DNA of 64,000 nucleotides from a virus: positions 29,822 to 93,821 of the IMG/VR virus record IMGVR_UViG_3300009509_000031. One strand, given 5' to 3'. The notes under the pieces are model-generated. The model did no database searches. It was not told the DNA's origin and worked only from the letters and a program-made list of their open reading frames with translations. Both the position numbers and the translations under genes were made by a program. The number at the start of each line of letters is the position of its first letter. Positions within the stretch are counted from its first letter, which is position 1. Below, piece by piece: positions 12,160 through 51,035 of this stretch.

Positions 12160-12631
12160 GGTTCACCACAACTGTTTGAAGATTCGCTATTGCCGCTTCA
12201 GCCCTTGTTAATCTCTCACGCATTTCACCAAACCCACGAATAAGTGCAAATTCTGTATTACTGATTTGACCGTCAAGTCTAAGAACCTTTTTTGTTAAAT
12301 CACGGATCACACCATCCAACACATCAGAAACTAGAACACGCAAGGTTTCATGAATCACAGAAACTAGCTTAGTAAATGCAACACCTGCAGGACCCTCCAG
12401 AACAACATCTGTTGATTTAAGCAACGCCTTACACCTGTGTTCGTACAAAGCCCACAAATCCCCTGCAAACAACGGCCGATCTGAAATAGTAAGAACACGA
12501 GTATCGATCCATTCAATCAATACGTGCAACAACCGTCTTGTGTGCTGTTCTGGAAGAATCAGCAAATCATCCGGCCATTTTTCATCTAACATACCCTCTA
12601 ATCGTGCTTTCAAGCTTCCTGGAACTGTCAC
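12149..12631 (-). CDS. Hypothetical protein
   Basis: GTGA start/stop overlap with upstream gene. Confidence 0.65.
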   Translation of the reverse strand: MTVPGSLKARLEGMLDEKWPDDLLILPEQHTRRLLHVLIEWIDTRVLTISDRPLFAGDLWALYEHRCKALLKSTDVVLEGPAGVAFTKLVSVIHETLRVLVSDVLDGVIRDLTKKVLRLDGQISNTEFALIRGFGEMRERLTRAEAAIANLQTVVVNHDS

Positions 12632-28416: not shown

Positions 28417-28764
28417 TTAGTCATCTGCAACAGTTTGCCCGTTCCTTGTTCGCTTAAACCGTCTGTTACCGTTATCTGTTTCACCTTTTGTTGAATCAGC
28501 AATTTCTAGCATCACTCGTGTTTTGTATTTTGCGCTCATAGCTTCCAGCAATACACGCAAGGCTTTTGCGATCCTGCCAGCCTTACCGATTACCTTTCCA
28601 GCATCACCGGTACCTGTTTTAACGGTTAAAATTACAGTACCACCGCCTTCACTTACTGTTTGCGATACAGAAACAGCATCCGGAGTATCAACCAATTCCA
28701 TCACAACATCTTTCAACAGCTCTCTCAACTTAAAGTCTTTAGACAACATGATAATTAACTCCAA
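28417..28764 (-). CDS. khpA: KH-domain RNA-binding protein (KhpA/YlqC/UPF0109 family)
   Basis: LVDTPDAVSV...DAGKVIGKAGRIAKALRVLL...RVMLEI with intact GxxG loop. Confidence 0.9.
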   Translation of the reverse strand: MELIIMLSKDFKLRELLKDVVMELVDTPDAVSVSQTVSEGGGTVILTVKTGTGDAGKVIGKAGRIAKALRVLLEAMSAKYKTRVMLEIADSTKGETDNGNRRFKRTRNGQTVADD

Positions 28765-35778: not shown

Positions 35779-37233
35779 CTAATCAAGCCACACTGGCGGC
35801 TCATCACAGTATTCGTTGTAGATACTTTCTAGCTTTTTAAGTTGTGATTTTGAAATTAGGGTTGTTTCTTCTTTCTCAACAGCCTCAATTAACTTTGACA
35901 CAAACTTTAAACAGTTTGTTGGTTGTTCCTTTAACCATTGCCATCCGTCTTTTGCTGATAGTACGGACAAAATGAACAGGGCATGTGCTTTTCTTGCTGT
36001 TCTTGATTCCCGTACATTATCGTATGTAGCCGTTCCCTTATCAGCAAACTCAATTCTGCAATTCCGGCGGCCCACTGTTCCCTTCGTGGCCCTTGGTTTA
36101 TCTGTTCGTACAACTGTTTTAGAGTGTCTGGATCGGCTAGCCGCAGTAACGCCATTAGCTTCAACCTTTCGTATACGGCTAGCGTAGATCCGTTTGACGC
36201 TGTTGGAAGTTCTTTCTGTTCGTTTTTGAGTTCTGCAACAACCTCTTTTCTTGTTTCTCTCACCTTCATCACCGGCTGTAACCACAACCCGCAATCGTTT
36301 TGTCCAAGAACCCTTTTTATCTTTTTTGACCATTGAATTTTTCGCAACCTTTTTGTGTACACCCGTACCTCTACACAGTGTTCTAAAGGATCCACAAAAC
36401 CCGGAAAATTTCCTAATCAGTGAACTCAACCCGAATTCAACACATCGATCATGCAGTGCTTGTTTATCAAGCACCGTCTTTAACCGGCCAAACTTGTACT
36501 GATTCAACAGATCGCGCTTTTCTTCTTCTGTAATATGCGGCTTTTTCAGATCCCATAATGAAGTGTTGCGTGTAATCACACTAACAACATCTTTATGGGA
36601 TACGGATCCCAGCCCACCTTGCTTTTTAGAATGTTGCAGTATCCGATCTAGTGTCTTAAACCTATCAAGTAACTTCCTAGCCGTTTTATCCCCAACCATA
36701 TGAACACCAGGAACATTATCCTTATTACCTACTAGTAATCGGTAGGCCAAGAACTGTTCAGGCTGCATTTCTAATTTAACTTTTGCATGTGACTTGGGAT
36801 CAATGATGTAGTGGTTTTTAGGTACACAAAGCTGGAAGAGATCAGAATCGCTAGTCACGATACCAACCTCTTCCAGCTTTAGAAATACGGTTAATACGGC
36901 TATAACGTCATCTGCTTCAACACCATTTTCATAGCATTGAATAACCGGCAATGTGTCAAAGAATCGTTTAAGAATTGCAAGTTGCCTAATTAAGTCTTCA
37001 ATAAACTCCGGATCCTTATTTCTGTTTGCTTTGTAATCCGGAAAAATCGCCTTCCTTTTATTACTACCACCATCCCAACAGATAATAAGTTCATCCGGAT
37101 CCAAATCTGCAGCAAGGCTAGCCAAGCTTTTTAACACACCGTACACAATATTAGTATTCTGGCCCTTATAAGACAGACTCAGTTTATATGCTGCCCTATA
37201 CGCCAGATTAGATAAATCAACAAGTAGTCTCAC
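35779..37233 (-). CDS. 5'-3' exonuclease / flap endonuclease with long C-terminal extension
   Basis: LLVDLSNLAYRA, WDGG, YKANR, EADDVIA, SDSDLFQ, DNVPGV..VGDKTA. Confidence 0.9.
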   Translation of the reverse strand: MRLLVDLSNLAYRAAYKLSLSYKGQNTNIVYGVLKSLASLAADLDPDELIICWDGGSNKRKAIFPDYKANRNKDPEFIEDLIRQLAILKRFFDTLPVIQCYENGVEADDVIAVLTVFLKLEEVGIVTSDSDLFQLCVPKNHYIIDPKSHAKVKLEMQPEQFLAYRLLVGNKDNVPGVHMVGDKTARKLLDRFKTLDRILQHSKKQGGLGSVSHKDVVSVITRNTSLWDLKKPHITEEEKRDLLNQYKFGRLKTVLDKQALHDRCVEFGLSSLIRKFSGFCGSFRTLCRGTGVHKKVAKNSMVKKDKKGSWTKRLRVVVTAGDEGERNKKRGCCRTQKRTERTSNSVKRIYASRIRKVEANGVTAASRSRHSKTVVRTDKPRATKGTVGRRNCRIEFADKGTATYDNVRESRTARKAHALFILSVLSAKDGWQWLKEQPTNCLKFVSKLIEAVEKEETTLISKSQLKKLESIYNEYCDEPPVWLD

Positions 37234-38471: not shown

Positions 38472-38993
38472 CTACCGATCCTTTCGTTTTCTTTTTACAG
38501 ATCTCTTTACAACCCGCTGTTCCAAAACCCTGTTAGCTCGTTTTATTTTCTTTCTTAGTGATAAATCAGTTGAATCCTTTTCTGTTCTGTTATCTGCACC
38601 AAGTTGAATCAGCATATCCTTACGTTGTTTAAATGCTTCAACAGCAACTTTTAGAATATCCCTGTTAAACTTTGCTTTGTGCCACGCTTCAACAGCTTCC
38701 CTATGCCGACTATGTTTTGTTATGTGTTCTTTGATCTCAGCTTCTTTACTGTTTCGTTTTTCAGATCTGTATTTCAATCCCAGCTTAGCCCCAATTACAT
38801 CCTTTGCTTCTTCCGATCGCCTTGCTTCATCTTCCGCCCTAGCGTGTAAAAATCCCCAATGTGCGAAGTAACTAGCTTGTCTTGAAAATTCTTGTTTCAG
38901 ATCTGCCCCAATACCAAGCTCTTCAAGGATACCCAACATCGTTTTTTCTGGATCAATAAGATCATCGTTTTCATCTTCACGCCGCTTTGGCAT
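38472..38993 (-). CDS. UvsY-like recombination mediator
   Basis: Helical; EF..Q...F..W...VEAFKQRKDMLIQLG; GGAGG RBS; between polA and SSB. Confidence 0.55.
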   Translation of the reverse strand: MPKRREDENDDLIDPEKTMLGILEELGIGADLKQEFSRQASYFAHWGFLHARAEDEARRSEEAKDVIGAKLGLKYRSEKRNSKEAEIKEHITKHSRHREAVEAWHKAKFNRDILKVAVEAFKQRKDMLIQLGADNRTEKDSTDLSLRKKIKRANRVLEQRVVKRSVKRKRKDR

Positions 38994-41700
38994 ACCCCTT
39001 AACCTCCAAATAGCTTTGATATTCTTCTTTCTCTTCCTTACTCTGGTATTCTTCACCAAAACATTGTTGCTTCAAACATTCCACCTTCAACGGCATTTCA
39101 TACTTATGCCGGCTATCTTTTGGTAATGTATCGGCCATCCATACCACGATCTTTTCACTTGCGTCATCTGCACAACATTTGTGACAACTAAACACCAACT
39201 GATCGTGAAGTGTAAGAATGATTCTCAATCCTGGAAAGTTTGATCGTCTAATACCGTCATACACCCGTTTGGTTGCTCTTGTCATCACATCACCGGCAAT
39301 AGCTTGCACTTCAAAGTTGTAAGCTTCCCTATGCAAATGTGATAAATCAAAATCCCGCTTATCGGTTCTCAATCCGTATTTAGACAAGAACCACTGAATA
39401 CCCGGCAACCGGCGTTTTCTACCGTATACAGCACTAGTAAGCCGCCCATTCTTTTCAACAAGTGCAACCTGTTTACGTCTAAAGGCTGCTATCCTCTGAT
39501 ACTTTTCAAAATACGCATCAATGACACGTTGAACTTTTAATTGCCGTTCCTTCATCGGCATGTTCAACGGAAAACTATCAGGATTAGCTTCAGCAATTGC
39601 ATAGGCACCTCTACCGTATGGAATACCGAAGTTTGCACCCTTGGCAACAGATCGTTCATCCTTGGTAATCAGCGGTGCAATCTGTTTCCATTCTTCATCG
39701 GTGGGTTCTCGCATCAACCTAGCAACAACTGCCATTCTCGTATGCAGATCAACACCAGTTAGAAGCTCTTTAATCATGATCCTTTCATTAGCAAGCCACG
39801 CTAATACGCATAGTTCAACTTTTTCATAATCAGCAGAAAGGATCACATGATCTGGAGTATCGGGAACAAGGATTGAACGAATACAGCCGGTTCTTGGAAG
39901 TGTCTGAACCGGCGGATCATCAGCTGAAAGCCGGCCAGTTCTCGCGATGTGTATATTAAAATTTGGGTGGAATCGGTTCTTAGATTCAAGATAACGCAAA
40001 AACGCACCATCCGAATCCGTACCATCCAAATTTTTTGTTATGTAACCTTCAAACTTTCTTAATTCAATGATCGCCCTAGCGATCCTACCTGCTTTTGTCT
40101 TCTGAATAGACAGAGCTTCTAAAACAAACTTATCTGTTGATCGGTTACCGCCCCTTGTTCGTTTACGTAAATCAGCACCGGCTGCTTCTAGTAAGTTGGC
40201 AAGCTGAATAGGTGAATTAGGATTAAAGATAACAATATTACCTTTTGTATCACGAACAGTCCCAAGCAACTTGTTTGCCTGGTTCTTTATCCGTGTAAGT
40301 ATTCTTTCAGACTTCTTACGGTAATGTTTACTCAGATACAGTAACCGTTCCTTATCACACTGCAGCCCACGATATTCTGCATCAGCAAGCGGGTTGATTA
40401 GTCCCATATGCCCCTTAAACGGGCCAACCGTTTTTTCTTGCTTTAATAACTTAACTAACTTCTTTTTTATTAGCCACGTTGCATTACAGTCATAACCGCA
40501 ATAAGACCATAACAGCCGGTTTGGAACTTCCCACGTTTTGAAGATCGTTTTTTTACCGGCCGTAACCTTATACTCATCCATAACCGCATCATATTTTTTC
40601 CAACGCAAGTACCATTGACTTTGAAAGGTAAGATTATGCGGTTTGTTTTCGTCAATATTTGCATGTGCAATCAACGTATCAAACACAACGTTGAAATCAA
40701 CAATACCTGTCAATTTCCTAATATGCTTGATATCAAATTTTAAATTTTGCCCGATCAGTTTTGCTTTTAAAAAAACTTGAGTTAACCTATCAACTAAAAT
40801 CCTTCGTTGCTGTGGTGTCCAAAAATACGTCTTACCCTGTACCATCCACGGCAAGATATGACTTTCATCATCCTCAAAACAAAACCCCACACACATAATT
40901 TCTGAAGTGTGTGGGGATAGCCCCGTCGTTTCTAAATCAAACACAAAACCCGTATCAATCCGTTCTAACCGGCTCAACAGGGCTAGTGCTTTTTCAAACG
41001 TATCAGCAACCGTTATTTTTGTTGTAGGACTTTTTAACGGTTCCTTACCAGCTGCAAGCCGTTTTGCAACTAGTAGATCAAACACCACCAAATCATCGAA
41101 TTCCCAATTATGCAAACACGCATTAGGGTTATGTGTAGGAACAACCCAAAACGTGTGGGAATACGTCTTACCCTTTTTAGTTACCCATTCAATCGTATGT
41201 TTACTATAAAAACCGCGCCAACTTTTTACAGTTCTAGTGTTCTTCTTAACTGTCTGATGGCCGTTTTTCTGCGTAACAATCTCACCAAGAATCGTTTGAT
41301 ACGCAACAGAACCTAAGCATACAACCACCTTCGGTTTGTTTTTAAGTATCGATCTTAGGAGATAGCCGTAACAAGATGAGATATGATTTACGGAAGGTTT
41401 TTTTGTTCCCGGTACCCTACACCTAACAGCCGTTTCAATGCGTAGGGCTTTCCTATCAAGTCCAGATCGTTTTAAACAGTAATTTAACTTCCAACCGGAA
41501 TCACCAACAAACGGTCTAGATCTTTCTTCGTCTATCGGCCCTAGCGATTCCCCCAACAACATAATATCCGCTGTTGACGGTCCTGATCCATCGCAACAAA
41601 CGGTTTTTGATGTTTTGCAAAGATCGCATCGATTACAGGTAACACTTTGACGAAGTAATTTGATCCGGTTGATCTGTTTCGCTGTTGCTTTCGCTGGCAA
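38977..41700 (-). CDS. polA: Family A DNA polymerase with N-terminal family-4 UDG-like domain and 3'-5' exonuclease
   Basis: CNRCDL..GESLG..PFVGDSG (UDG4); FDLETTGL, QNLKFD, YCGYD (exo); TGRLS, ADY..VEL, RSVAKGANFGIPYG, LHDQ (pol). Confidence 0.93.
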   Translation of the reverse strand: MPAKATAKQINRIKLLRQSVTCNRCDLCKTSKTVCCDGSGPSTADIMLLGESLGPIDEERSRPFVGDSGWKLNYCLKRSGLDRKALRIETAVRCRVPGTKKPSVNHISSCYGYLLRSILKNKPKVVVCLGSVAYQTILGEIVTQKNGHQTVKKNTRTVKSWRGFYSKHTIEWVTKKGKTYSHTFWVVPTHNPNACLHNWEFDDLVVFDLLVAKRLAAGKEPLKSPTTKITVADTFEKALALLSRLERIDTGFVFDLETTGLSPHTSEIMCVGFCFEDDESHILPWMVQGKTYFWTPQQRRILVDRLTQVFLKAKLIGQNLKFDIKHIRKLTGIVDFNVVFDTLIAHANIDENKPHNLTFQSQWYLRWKKYDAVMDEYKVTAGKKTIFKTWEVPNRLLWSYCGYDCNATWLIKKKLVKLLKQEKTVGPFKGHMGLINPLADAEYRGLQCDKERLLYLSKHYRKKSERILTRIKNQANKLLGTVRDTKGNIVIFNPNSPIQLANLLEAAGADLRKRTRGGNRSTDKFVLEALSIQKTKAGRIARAIIELRKFEGYITKNLDGTDSDGAFLRYLESKNRFHPNFNIHIARTGRLSADDPPVQTLPRTGCIRSILVPDTPDHVILSADYEKVELCVLAWLANERIMIKELLTGVDLHTRMAVVARLMREPTDEEWKQIAPLITKDERSVAKGANFGIPYGRGAYAIAEANPDSFPLNMPMKERQLKVQRVIDAYFEKYQRIAAFRRKQVALVEKNGRLTSAVYGRKRRLPGIQWFLSKYGLRTDKRDFDLSHLHREAYNFEVQAIAGDVMTRATKRVYDGIRRSNFPGLRIILTLHDQLVFSCHKCCADDASEKIVVWMADTLPKDSRHKYEMPLKVECLKQQCFGEEYQSKEEKEEYQSYLEVKGYAKAA

Positions 41701-41730
41701 TGTAACAACCCGTCAAGTTTTCGCTAGAAA

Positions 41731-41871
41731 AATTGACACCAGATCGCCCGATTGGTGTTGGTTGCTTGCCAAATAGGAAAAGGGGGGAAAGGTGGATTGT
41801 CTCAAGCATGTGTAACGCTGTTGTTCTGGCCAATGGCCGATCATTTACAATCGGGCGATCCAGTGTCAATT
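41731..41871 (-). ncRNA. Structured RNA / polA leader: 24-bp closing stem with C/U-rich anti-SD-like loop
   Basis: Inverted repeat 41731-41754 / 41848-41871, whose two mismatches are G-U pairs only on the minus strand; inner stem UGCUUG/CAAGCA encloses UCCACCUUUCCCCCCUUUUCCU. Confidence 0.6.
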
Positions 41872-41955
41872 CAAATTTTGTAACGAATACTGCAACAACC
41901 AACGGCAACAGTCTTACCACGAACAACAACACGGATGCAAGAATTTTTTACAGGC

Positions 41956-41991
41956 AAAAAAAAAGCCCGGTATCGCAAGGATACCGGGCTT
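41956..41991 (-). terminator. Rho-independent terminator ending the early unit
   Basis: AAGCCCGGTATC-loop-GATACCGGGCTT followed by a T run on the minus strand. Confidence 0.9.
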
Positions 41992-42011
41992 GTTGGTGCA
42001 CAGAAGCAACA

Positions 42012-42526: not shown

Positions 42527-42780
42527 AGATCTTGTACTTATAAGGTCTGTTACACCTTTCAAATAAGAGATAATAAGAAGATCTACTTATACTATTATAG
42601 ATATATCCAGGATCCTGTTGCTATATGCAAGTTACACGTCTTACTTCCTACTTACATAATGTACTGTATATATAGCAACACCGGTAGGTTCACAATCTTT
42701 AGAAAGCTAAATGGTGGCCCACTATTAGTTGACAACTAAACGTAATAGTGGGCCACCAGAAGTATTAGGAAAGGCGAGAA

Positions 42781-42867
42781 ACCTAATACTCCATTGAGCA
42801 CACTTGACAGAAAACAGATTGACCACGTTATTTAAAACCCGTCAAGTGTGCTCTAGCAGTGCTAGGT
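42781..42867 (-). promoter_or_regulatory. Conserved stem-loop H1 (RNase III-like processing site)
   Basis: ACCUAGCACU-GCUA-GAGCACACUUGAC...GUCAAGUGUGCUC-AAUGG-AGUAUUAGGU. Confidence 0.7.
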
Positions 42868-43764: not shown

Positions 43765-43821
43765 TGATTGCTCCATTGAACCAACCTGGTAACCTCACCA
43801 GGTTGGCTCTAGCAGCTATCA
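43765..43821 (-). promoter_or_regulatory. Conserved stem-loop H2
   Basis: UGAUAGCU-GCUA-GAGCCAACCUGGU...ACCAGGUUGGUUC-AAUGG-AGCAAUCA. Confidence 0.7.
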
Positions 43822-45277: not shown

Positions 45278-45330
45278 TAATTGCTCTATTGAACCAACCT
45301 ATTGTGGTAGGTTGGCTCTAACAGCAATTA
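45278..45330 (-). promoter_or_regulatory. Conserved stem-loop H3
   Basis: UAAUUGCU-GUUA-GAGCCAACCUA...UAGGUUGGUUC-AAUAG-AGCAAUUA. Confidence 0.7.
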
Positions 45331-46440
45331 CTTTCGTTTCTTACTGCTTTTCTTTTTACTGCTAGCATTTCGAGCAATTTGAACAATAGTTGACTGTGGC
45401 TTAACAGGTTCTTCAACTTCAACAACAACCTTTTCAACTTCAACATCTTCAACAGTAGCCGGTTCTTCAACTTCAACAACAACCTTTTCTTTAGCTGCTT
45501 TTTGTTCTTCTGAACCCTTGTAATACCCTTCCGTAATCATCGCAGTAACAGCCTTTTTACACGTTTCCAGCCCTTTCAAGATCTGATCTGCGTTGAACCC
45601 CAACATTTCGGCGTACATCTTGCCACGTTCCTGCAGATCCTTGAATTCTTCAATCCGATTTTCCAACCGATCCTTACGTGGTGCTTTGGTTTTGAATTCT
45701 TCAATCTCTGCTTTCAGTGCTGCTAGTTCGCCCTGTAGTGCTGATTTACAATCTTTAGCCAGATCCGGTTGCTCCCCCCAAACATCCGGCAAACTCAAGT
45801 GGCTATCACCAGGGATTGCATCAAGAACCGCTTGCAGCTTGTTCAAAATGGTTCTGTACTGTTCCGGCACAAAGTACACTGCACCGGTTGGCCGGATATT
45901 CACAGCTTTCATACGCTTTAGATTACGGGTTAAGAGCCGGCTAAAATCTTGCACTGTTAGGTGGCAGTACATTGTATCAAACAAATCCCTAACCTTAGCG
46001 GCTACCTGGTACCCGTCTGTACCGTTATCTTTGCTACATACAACTGAACACGTTTCTTTGTCCAGTCTAACCTTTGCTTCACATTGGTGGGCCAGATCCT
46101 CTTGTACCTTCAACCGATCTTCACGAACAACCCCATACACCAAGTGATGATCCGTTTCATTGATTGGTCGAATTAGATAGCCGGTGTTTTCGCCTTTTTT
46201 GTTCAAGTTGCGGGATACTTCTTTAATTGTCTTACGAAAAGCAACCGTTGATCGCTGTTCTGGTGGCCCCCAATTTTCCCAGCTAAGATCCTGTTGCGCG
46301 AACAGCTCTTTAAGATCATCCCTGTGAATCATTGCACCAGTAAGCCACCAATAAGCTAAGCATCCTTTCCGTGTCCAACCCAACTTTGCCAGTTTCTTGT
46401 GTTCTGCGTTCAAGTCCCGAACAAACTTTGTTTCCGCCAT
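45328..46440 (-). CDS. DUF6744-like protein
   Basis: G.L.YW..., AFRK, IRPTGAVYFVP motif, C-terminal coiled coil; family name from recall. Confidence 0.6.
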   Translation of the reverse strand: MAETKFVRDLNAEHKKLAKLGWTRKGCLAYWWLTGAMIHRDDLKELFAQQDLSWENWGPPEQRSTVAFRKTIKEVSRNLNKKGENTGYLIRPINETDHHLVYGVVREDRLKVQEDLAHQCEAKVRLDKETCSVVCSKDNGTDGYQVAAKVRDLFDTMYCHLTVQDFSRLLTRNLKRMKAVNIRPTGAVYFVPEQYRTILNKLQAVLDAIPGDSHLSLPDVWGEQPDLAKDCKSALQGELAALKAEIEEFKTKAPRKDRLENRIEEFKDLQERGKMYAEMLGFNADQILKGLETCKKAVTAMITEGYYKGSEEQKAAKEKVVVEVEEPATVEDVEVEKVVVEVEEPVKPQSTIVQIARNASSKKKSSKKRK

Positions 46441-46468: not shown

Positions 46469-46514
46469 GCTGTTCTGTCAAGCCAACTGATTACAGCTAG
46501 CTTGACAGAACAGC
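46469..46514 (-). promoter_or_regulatory. 21-bp intergenic hairpin H5
   Basis: GCUGUUCUGUCAAGCUAGCUG-UAAU-CAGUUGGCUUGACAGAACAGC; G-U pairs on the minus strand. Confidence 0.65.
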
Positions 46515-48274: not shown

Positions 48275-48332
48275 TTTGAATGCTCCATTGAACCAACCCG
48301 GCATTGCCGGGTTAGCTCTAGCAGGATTCAAA
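48275..48332 (-). promoter_or_regulatory. Conserved stem-loop H4
   Basis: UUUGAAUCCU-GCUA-GAGCUAACCCGGC...GCCGGGUUGGUUC-AAUGG-AGCAUUCAAA. Confidence 0.7.
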
Positions 48333-48510
48333 CTCGTTTACAGCCGGCTTTCTTGAAAGCCTTTTTAGCTGCAGCAAGAAACGCTTCAGCGTTTGAACAC
48401 GGTTGAATGTGCCGATCGTGGCACTGTGCAACACACTGTTCAACAATCACACCGTTAATGATTCTCTTCTTAGGTGCTTCAACCGGGTTACCACAGATGA
48501 AACAATTCAT
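48328..48510 (-). CDS. First early gene, small Cys/His protein
   Basis: CFIC...CVAQCH; GAAAGGTG RBS. Confidence 0.6.
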   Translation of the reverse strand: MNCFICGNPVEAPKKRIINGVIVEQCVAQCHDRHIQPCSNAEAFLAAAKKAFKKAGCKRV

Positions 48511-48785
48511 GGTGTTCACCTTTCTGTTAGTTGTTTCTTTCAGCGTTCACAGATTGTAAACACTGAAAGAAGCAACTAAGTTGCTTCTGTGTATTGGGGC
48601 CATCTACCGGTTGTTTTGGTTCCAAGTTGGTCTTTGTGTGGTAGCGTTCAGCCGGTGTTACAAGTCTTTGCTAGCCCTTACCAGGTGACAAGGAAAGCAT
48701 TTCAGCTAACCCCTGGGGATGCGTCCAAATCCCTCTCTCAGCCCTACCATCGTACCTGTTGCCCTTGGTTGCCCCGTTAACCGTC

Positions 48786-50983: not shown

Positions 50984-51025
50984 GGGGATCGGGAATTGTT
51001 GTTACCTGCTACAATTCCCGATCCC
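50984..51025 (-). terminator. Terminator-like hairpin
   Basis: GGGGATCGGGAATTGT...ACAATTCCCGATCCCC then GTTTCATTT on the minus strand. Confidence 0.65.
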
Positions 51026-51035
51026 CAATTATACG

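Follow-up and report, generated by a model that had tools for sequence, protein, structure and literature searches.

The polA gene and its upstream region

A structured segment directly upstream of the DNA polymerase gene (polA) of an uncultured phage was analysed. The window, meaning the whole stretch of 64,000 nt under analysis, comprised bases 29822–93821 of a 93,821-bp IMG/VR virus record (IMGVR_UViG_3300009509_000031) with direct terminal repeats. All long open reading frames (ORFs) were on the minus strand. The segment of interest (41701–41910, minus strand) lay between a predicted promoter and polA, contained a long inverted repeat and adjoined the following gene:

38977–41700, minus: polA, a fusion of UDG4, 3'-5' exonuclease and family-A DNA polymerase (Pfam), with a TTG start codon at 41700–41698

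The TTG at 41700 was the sole in-frame start downstream of a UGA stop. The polA homologues had an Ala/Lys-rich N-terminus that began at the same place, mostly with GTG, and the start was non-AUG in eight of the 11 phages compared here. The public polA protein (P0001, 783 aa) begins at an internal Met, so that the TTG start and the greater part of the UDG domain are lacking; the public gene call puts the start 124 codons too late, which is corrected here.

The inverted repeat forms a long helix, designated P1, around a C-rich loop:

41848–41871, minus: P1 5' arm, 24 nt (25 with a closing G·U pair), from inverted-repeat search and hairpin scoring
41755–41847, minus: loop of 93 nt, C-rich and G-poor (C 32%, G 15%), from base composition
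41763–41808, minus: inner hairpin with a 6-bp stem (41763–41768/41803–41808) and an apical loop that holds a 22-nt pyrimidine tract (41775–41796), from sequence and RNA fold
41808–41818, minus: 11-nt loop word with an exact match in the loop of the related phage L004
41731–41754, minus: P1 3' arm, from inverted-repeat search and pairing analysis
41701–41730, minus: single-stranded segment of 30 nt from P1 to the start codon, with a weak Shine–Dalgarno (SD)-like GACGGG at 41709–41714

The two arms of 24 nt were 92% complementary at a spacing of 93 nt. A first-pass annotation of this DNA had described a 24-bp repeat whose two mismatches become G·U pairs on the minus strand, together with an inner stem and a CU-rich tract; all of these were present, and both arm mismatches were G·U when read on the minus strand. 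With a strand-neutral score, in which G·T and A·C carry an equal penalty, the P1 repeat outscored every other hairpin in the 93,821-bp genome. Folding of both strands, as the annotation had proposed, gave the minus-strand RNA of 41681–41940 a free energy of −82.5 kcal/mol (z = −3.3; none of 200 shuffles was as good) and the plus-strand RNA z = −1.5.

Conservation in related phages

Cultured phages offered no close relative: polA identity stayed below 30%, and no DNA match was found among 50,697 phage records. A protein search with polA retrieved uncultured relatives at 39–83% identity (P0002–P0006 at 63–83%). Single-protein scans of IMG/VR with the window polA or P0006 found nothing, and cellular genome contigs searched with polA gave only cellular PolA at 24–28% identity and no clue to the host. 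Relatives were collected by scanning IMG/VR and JGI/NCBI metagenome contigs with alignment A1 (27 homologues). The ten used, which were distinct, had a readable region upstream of polA and were 45–67% identical in polA, were L084, L004, L005, L097, L007, L008, L009, L015, L092 and L006; the family comparisons rest on sister-pair alignments and our own scripts.

In nine relatives, the top hairpin of the whole locus (2.5–12.7 kb) lay directly 5' of polA; in L006 it ranked second. These P1 equivalents had stems of 15–38 bp and loops of 28–93 nt, and the distance from the end of the 3' arm to the start codon was 14–30 nt in each of the 11 phages (in L015, to the second GTG, the one with a GAGAGG SD). 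Between non-sister phages the P1 arms were ~29% identical, which is near random, yet 98% of positions were paired, with three to six pair types per column. Compensatory double changes were found in L005/L097 (five; alignment A2, 98% pairing) and in L007/L008 (two; A3), and slid controls had none. The structure, whose conservation the annotation had suggested examining, was thus kept with covariation (seven double changes in two sister pairs), as was the C-rich character of the loops. On the gene-sense strand, the stems held 18 G·U against three A·C pairs; with one member per sister pair the counts were 17 and three (two-sided binomial p ~0.003, calculated by hand). The excess of G·U in arms that are paired but diverged is the mark of an RNA fold, or at least a strand-specific one, and not of a duplex-DNA palindrome. 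The earlier claim of selection on RNA rather than on DNA was in this respect well founded.

Loops were C-rich and G-poor in ten members (C 32–47%, G 10–27%) on a strand that is otherwise G-rich, and pyrimidine-rich loop tracts also occurred in L007, L008, L015 and L006. By our estimate, the 11-nt word common to the loops of the window and L004 had a chance probability of ~1e-3. A covariance model built from L005 and L097 (R1) matched L084, L004 and L009 at the right place with only 5–10 bits, because primary-sequence conservation in the family is too small.

A DNA-level element, such as a transcription-primed origin of the T7 or ColE1 kind, a cruciform or a single-strand initiation signal, was highly improbable in the light of these data. 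In favour of such an element, a long perfect inverted repeat adjoins a promoter and lies, in a T7-like replisome gene set, between the genes for primase-helicase and polymerase, and GATC was locally dense (nine sites in ~400 bp). However, the wobble pattern was strand-specific, the pairing included the predicted 5' end of the RNA (below), the position was fixed relative to the polA start codon, and neither a skew inflection nor iterons were found. The GATC cluster was rejected as an origin signal: GATC was enriched 2.3-fold genome-wide, and other windows were denser.

We assign a negligible probability to the reading that the region encodes a 99-aa ORF (41633–41932) or is a mobile repeat (miniature inverted-repeat transposable element, MITE). 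One sense frame was indeed open through the hairpin, but Pfam gave no match to the ORF, a search of 5.8 billion proteins gave no homologue, and tblastn found no counterpart in the leaders of the relatives. The leader DNA was single-copy in the genome (self-match only) and had no match in the 50,697 phage records. The coding and MITE readings are effectively refuted. The first-pass annotation had itself named a conserved ORF, a MITE and an origin as findings that would overturn its RNA; the ORF was not conserved, the element was single-copy, and the GATC signal did not hold.

The Rfam comparison recommended in the annotation returned no family match in the window or the relatives. With Rfam 15, nothing was found over the hairpin, loop or 3' segment at E values up to 10; weak rows in the window were far below threshold and centred on the upstream terminator. 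In the loci of nine relatives, at E values up to 0.1, there was nothing but one sub-threshold match elsewhere, to the cyanobacterial small RNA (sRNA) NsiR1 (L084:4196-4253; 32 bits against a gathering score of 39). It lay ~430 nt upstream of the polA hairpin and is probably a terminator-like hairpin. P1 did not resemble a terminator or attenuator: its loop measured 28–93 nt across the family, and a U-tract followed it only in the window and L009. Literature searches found no description of this leader motif.

Promoter, terminator and predicted pairing of the transcript 5' end

Upstream of P1, a terminator and a promoter were followed by a short segment complementary to the loop:

41953–41994, minus: intrinsic terminator with a 12-bp G+C-rich stem (41991–41963) followed by a T-run (U-run in the RNA), which ends the upstream transcription unit
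41911–41941, minus: sigma70-like promoter, read from the sequence: C followed by TTGCAT (−35, 41940–41935), an 18-nt spacer, TG (41919–41918) and TAAGAC (−10, 41916–41911)
41896–41903, minus: segment a, 8 nt, the predicted transcript 5' end, beginning 8 nt past the −10 hexamer and complementary to a'
41757–41764, minus: segment a', 8 nt, 2 nt ahead of the P1 3' arm and complementary to a (duplex −9.6 kcal/mol)

The terminator that the annotation had placed just upstream was confirmed as a strong minus-strand hairpin with a U-run (stem 41963–41991), and the relatives also had a terminator ahead of the polA promoter. The proposed promoter, TTGCAT-18-TAAGAC with an extended TG, was present at 41940–41911 but failed a strict consensus scan. 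A CTTG(C/A)NN-17/18-TAnnnn layout stood 26–50 nt 5' of P1 in nine of the 11 phages, usually right after the terminator. It was not repeated at other gene starts of the phage. A second, consensus-like candidate, TTGACA-18-AATGAT (41840–41869, minus, in the P1 5' arm and loop), was unconserved in relatives, probably fortuitous, and was rejected.

Pairing of the predicted transcript 5' end with the loop, which the first-pass annotation had missed, was found in seven of the 11 phages (the window, L084, L004, L005, L097, L009 and L092), with sequences that differed between phages. In these seven, segment a was 8–10 nt long, began 5–13 nt past the −10 hexamer and was perfectly complementary to the 3' part or apex of the loop, with duplexes of −9.6 to −20.1 kcal/mol. 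In most members, part of the C-rich loop is the a' partner of this G-rich 5' end. Shuffle tests gave p values of 0.004–0.1 per phage and ~6e-6 in a Fisher combination, made by hand, over all ten tested sequences. The a:a' words of the window and L084 overlapped, and one difference between them, read from the sequences, was apparently compensated. The order a, P1 5' arm, a', P1 3' arm is that of a pseudoknot, in which a:a' can stack on the top of P1. An antisense action of the loop on the 5' leaders of other transcripts was rejected, as 144 words complementary to a' occurred on the GT-rich sense strand.

The ribosome-binding site (RBS) of polA was largely accessible. The mean probability of being unpaired over positions −14 to +3 of the polA start was 0.65 in the window, and it ranged from 0.27 to 0.82 for the RBS in the members tested. 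The pairs flanking the TTG start that had been claimed earlier were found in the minimum free energy fold, but they consume promoter-spacer bases, and pairing of the 5' lead with the 3' segment was not significant in the window or in the eight relatives tested. Pairing of the loop with the polA SD was not significant in any member, in an RNAduplex comparison that is uninformative, as is that of the 5' lead with the loop, because the tool permits long interior loops. No riboswitch-like arrangement was found in which the RBS pairs with an anti-SD and an alternative fold frees it. We rejected a switch based on alternate pairing of segment a with the RBS region, since 5'-lead-to-RBS pairing was not significant and the RBS was largely open. 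In L006 (L006:1960-2000) and the more distant L089 (L089:4900-4955), a CU-rich stretch paired locally with a G-rich SD-like sequence before polA. Both have a simple SD-sequestering hairpin, in L006 inside the loop of its element, and the window is without one.

A candidate cis-acting leader of the polA mRNA

We hold, with a confidence slightly above even, that 41701–41910 (minus strand) is a structured cis-acting 5' leader of the polA mRNA that controls polA expression, likely via RNase III. What it controls is probably the processing, stability or translation of the polymerase message. At the level of sequence comparison, a structure of the RNA strand, a fixed position before the start codon and covarying conservation were demonstrated in a clade of ~95-kb uncultured phages; the start site, the cleavage and the action in cis on polA expression are what we infer.

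In the proposed mechanism, a host-type promoter right behind the terminator would start a new transcript, so that the leader stands first in a polA operon with a promoter of its own. This RNA would fold into the long perfect helix P1 (24 bp here) around the C-rich loop, ending 30 nt before the weak TTG, and its first 8 nt could base-pair with the 3' portion of the loop, giving a pseudoknot stacked on P1. Host RNase III would cut the P1 duplex and thereby create a mature 5' end beside the RBS, which would set the stability and translation of the message. While P1 is still uncut, or if it is never cut, the helix together with the buried 5' end would protect the message against 5'-end-dependent decay, and the RBS itself would not be sequestered.

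RNase III processing is favoured because the only invariant traits of the element were its length, perfection and position, and because the same phage has T7-style internal-loop hairpins and perfect 16–24 bp hairpins before genes. RNase III could plausibly act on a duplex of 24 bp: set against the helix of about two turns (~20 bp or more) that this enzyme takes, the window had a perfect helix of 24–25 bp and the relatives 15–38 bp. Neither an RNase III gene nor a T7-type RNA polymerase gene was detected in the phage, the latter being a weak negative, as the family's control genomes also gave no signal. Host enzymes are for this reason expected to act, and the RNase III would be that of the host.

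The other hairpins of the phage were of two kinds. Four intergenic stem-loops on the minus strand (42781–42867, 43765–43821, 45278–45330 and 48275–48332; z −5.6 to −7.5) had in common a lower stem and an asymmetric internal loop that was conserved, and differed in their upper stems, which is the layout of T7-type RNase III sites. Perfect or near-perfect intergenic hairpins of 16–24 bp with short loops were located, also on the minus strand, at 48527–48579, 46469–46514, 50984–51026 and 42712–42758. Several perfect hairpins of this length ended 16–30 nt before gene starts, two of those listed ending 16 nt before the ATG at 48510 and 29 nt before that at 46440. They may be further processing or stabiliser sites.

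Several observations weigh against the leader as modelled. Stems of 15–16 bp are short for sequence-independent cleavage by RNase III, and four members have no more than 16 bp unless coaxial stacking is counted. The two halves of the model conflict, because a pseudoknot that protects the 5' end serves the polA message only if P1 is uncut. The model is further weakened by an ambiguity as to what the buried 5' end would protect, the uncut message or a freed fragment. The −10 hexamer TAAGAC is weak, and the strict scan that it fails demands T at position 6. In the shuffle test, which covered the window and the nine relatives other than L006, no significant a:a' pairing was found in L007, L008 and L015. 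The a:a' duplex of the window comprises only 8 bp, such words are common in a GT-rich genome, and it is the weakest of the seven pseudoknots. The more distant relatives L012, L090, L095, L016 and L017 were without the element.

P1 and the pseudoknot could alternatively form a translational operator, nucleating the binding of a phage protein, which would spread across the neighbouring unstructured RBS or block it, as in the operators of T4 genes 32 and 43. PolA itself, SSB or, through the C-rich loop, a KhpA-like KH protein would be the candidates. A gene 32-type operator would combine a 5' pseudoknot with an unstructured RBS region to which the regulated protein binds; a predicted pseudoknot in seven of 11 phages and an accessible RBS were observed here, and the structure stands at a fixed short distance before this RBS and an A-rich, Ala/Lys-coding start. 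KH domains bind single-stranded, often C-rich RNA, and a KhpA/KhpB-type KH protein (PF13083, E 4e-17) was encoded at 28417–28764 (minus) and in both complete relatives (L163 and L164, 51–61% identity). Beyond the C-richness and the one 11-mer of two members, however, the leaders had no sequence motif in common that a protein could recognise. We regard the operator as unlikely; it is compatible with the cis-acting leader and not exclusive of it.

The loop as a possible anti-SD small RNA

The first-pass annotation had proposed an anti-SD sRNA released by cleavage. In the form considered here, processing of P1 would free a stable, pseudoknotted RNA of ~100–190 nt whose C/U-rich loop pairs with purine-rich phage or host RBSs, in the manner of the C-rich loops of RNAIII and RsaE. 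The RBSs of the phage are AGGAG/GGAGG, with GAAAGG variants enriched too, and the matches quoted in the annotation (before 48510, 15497, 15833, 14146 and 12631) exist. Loops were C-rich and G-poor in ten of the 11 members, against the G-rich sense strand, the 22-nt pyrimidine tract of the window lies in an apical loop, and the buried 5' end would stabilise a freed fragment. The tract bound RBS windows with −8.5 kcal/mol, compared with −5.8 kcal/mol for intragenic windows, and 18 of 116 RBS windows bound it at −12 kcal/mol or better, compared with 6.5% of the intragenic controls.

These matches were not specific, however. Shuffled tracts bound the RBS windows equally well (100 shuffles, −8.1 ± 0.4 kcal/mol; 13% at least as good as the real tract). 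Complementary sites of at least 8 nt on the sense strand were not enriched over shuffled tracts (40 for the real tract; shuffled mean 21, maximum 79) and were mostly intragenic (30 of 40). The complementarity between tract and RBSs is a matter of base composition and no evidence of targeting. The strongest RBS matches belonged to scattered late and middle genes, not to early ones; the RBSs at 12631, 14146 and 43739 ranked as the best predicted targets. Moreover, no terminator delimits an sRNA: the U-run after P1 is unconserved, the stem base is A/U-rich and the RNA runs into polA. The C-rich stretch is, in most members, already engaged in cis through a:a'. A regulator acting in trans is quite unlikely, and the sRNA claim was not specifically supported. 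A dual-function leader, whose pseudoknotted fragment would persist after the RNase III cut and whose C/U-rich loop would titrate RBSs or a KhpA-like KH protein, appears more doubtful still; if this were true, the onset of polymerase synthesis would be coupled to a global change in translation.

Comparison with known leaders and regulatory RNAs

Close parallels to a processed cis-acting leader are the RNase III sites of T7 and T3 (R0.3, R1.1 and others) and of the lambda N leader, which are likewise long intergenic phage hairpins just before the next RBS. There, cleavage defines the 5' end of the mature message and can increase translation. The present element differs in its perfect duplex of 15–38 bp, its C-rich loop of 28–93 nt, its promoter-proximal rather than polycistron-internal position and its pseudoknot between 5' end and loop. 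The pnp and rnc leaders of Escherichia coli, in which RNase III initiates stability control, share a long leader hairpin located between promoter and RBS. In pnp, the 5' fragment left annealed after cleavage affects stability. The polA leader has neither an autoregulating ribonuclease nor a sequence or family relation to them (no Rfam match). The 5' stabilisers of the ompA 5' untranslated region, Bacillus subtilis and SP82 also combine a paired 5' terminus with a stable helix before the RBS, an arrangement expected to block decay that depends on the 5' end, but here the 5' end would be held by a long-range pseudoknot into a hairpin loop and not by a simple terminal hairpin.

The T4 gene 32 pseudoknot and the T4/RB69 gene 43 operator resemble the element in placing a 5' structure beside an unstructured RBS on the message of a replication protein, which is a DNA polymerase in the case of gene 43, where control is translational. 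These operators are of small size, with the gene 43 hairpin lying directly against the SD, and the polymerase belongs to family B; P1 is far longer, and its partner protein is only a candidate. The IncI-alpha/IncB repZ activator pseudoknot likewise joins a loop to a distant segment in the leader of a replication gene, but in repZ the partner of the loop is a site adjoining the RBS and an antisense RNA counteracts the loop, whereas the polA loop pairs with the 5' end and its pairing with the RBS was not significant. The C-rich-loop sRNAs of Firmicutes (the staphylococcal RNAIII, and RsaE/RoxS) have similar apical loops able to pair with G-rich SDs. The duplexes of these sRNAs with their targets are RNase III substrates. 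These sRNAs are encoded by separate genes, each with a terminator of its own, and have conserved seed motifs, whereas the present RNA continues into polA and its C-rich stretch is mostly paired in cis.

The element is a structured RNA motif that had not been catalogued before and is clearly supported by comparison among ~95-kb uncultured phages without cultured relatives. It consists of a long helix close to the promoter and a C-rich loop with which the transcript 5' end can pair, and it lies right at the start of the replicative polymerase gene, with its weak non-AUG codon. It suggests that phages dependent on the RNA polymerase and RNases of the host control polymerase dosage post-transcriptionally, and with its T7-like processing hairpins the same phage is a good subject for studies of RNase III-type message processing outside the model phages.

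Genomic context

Upstream (5') of polA were genes for a helicase, a T7 gp4-like primase-helicase, MoxR, DUF6744 and vWA proteins and several small ORFs. Downstream (3') were a PHROG of unknown function, SSB (two genes downstream of polA), a 5'-3' exonuclease (FEN), RecA/UvsX and SbcCD. The leader element lies inside a replication module, because helicase and primase-helicase genes precede it and polA, SSB, FEN, RecA and SbcCD genes follow it. An early-to-replication switch, as which the annotation had presented the element, does not agree with this location.

The FEN gene contained a long intragenic hairpin (36828–36880, 13–23 bp of pairing). The same gene in two relatives held hairpins of 18–24 bp at non-identical positions (L004:9626-9705 and L084:10115-10265). 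These hairpins are too long for chance and are unexplained. Across the genome, GATC (2.3-fold) and CCGG (2.25-fold) were over-represented, and GCGC and TCGA were present at one third of expectation, which suggests selection tied to methylation or restriction.

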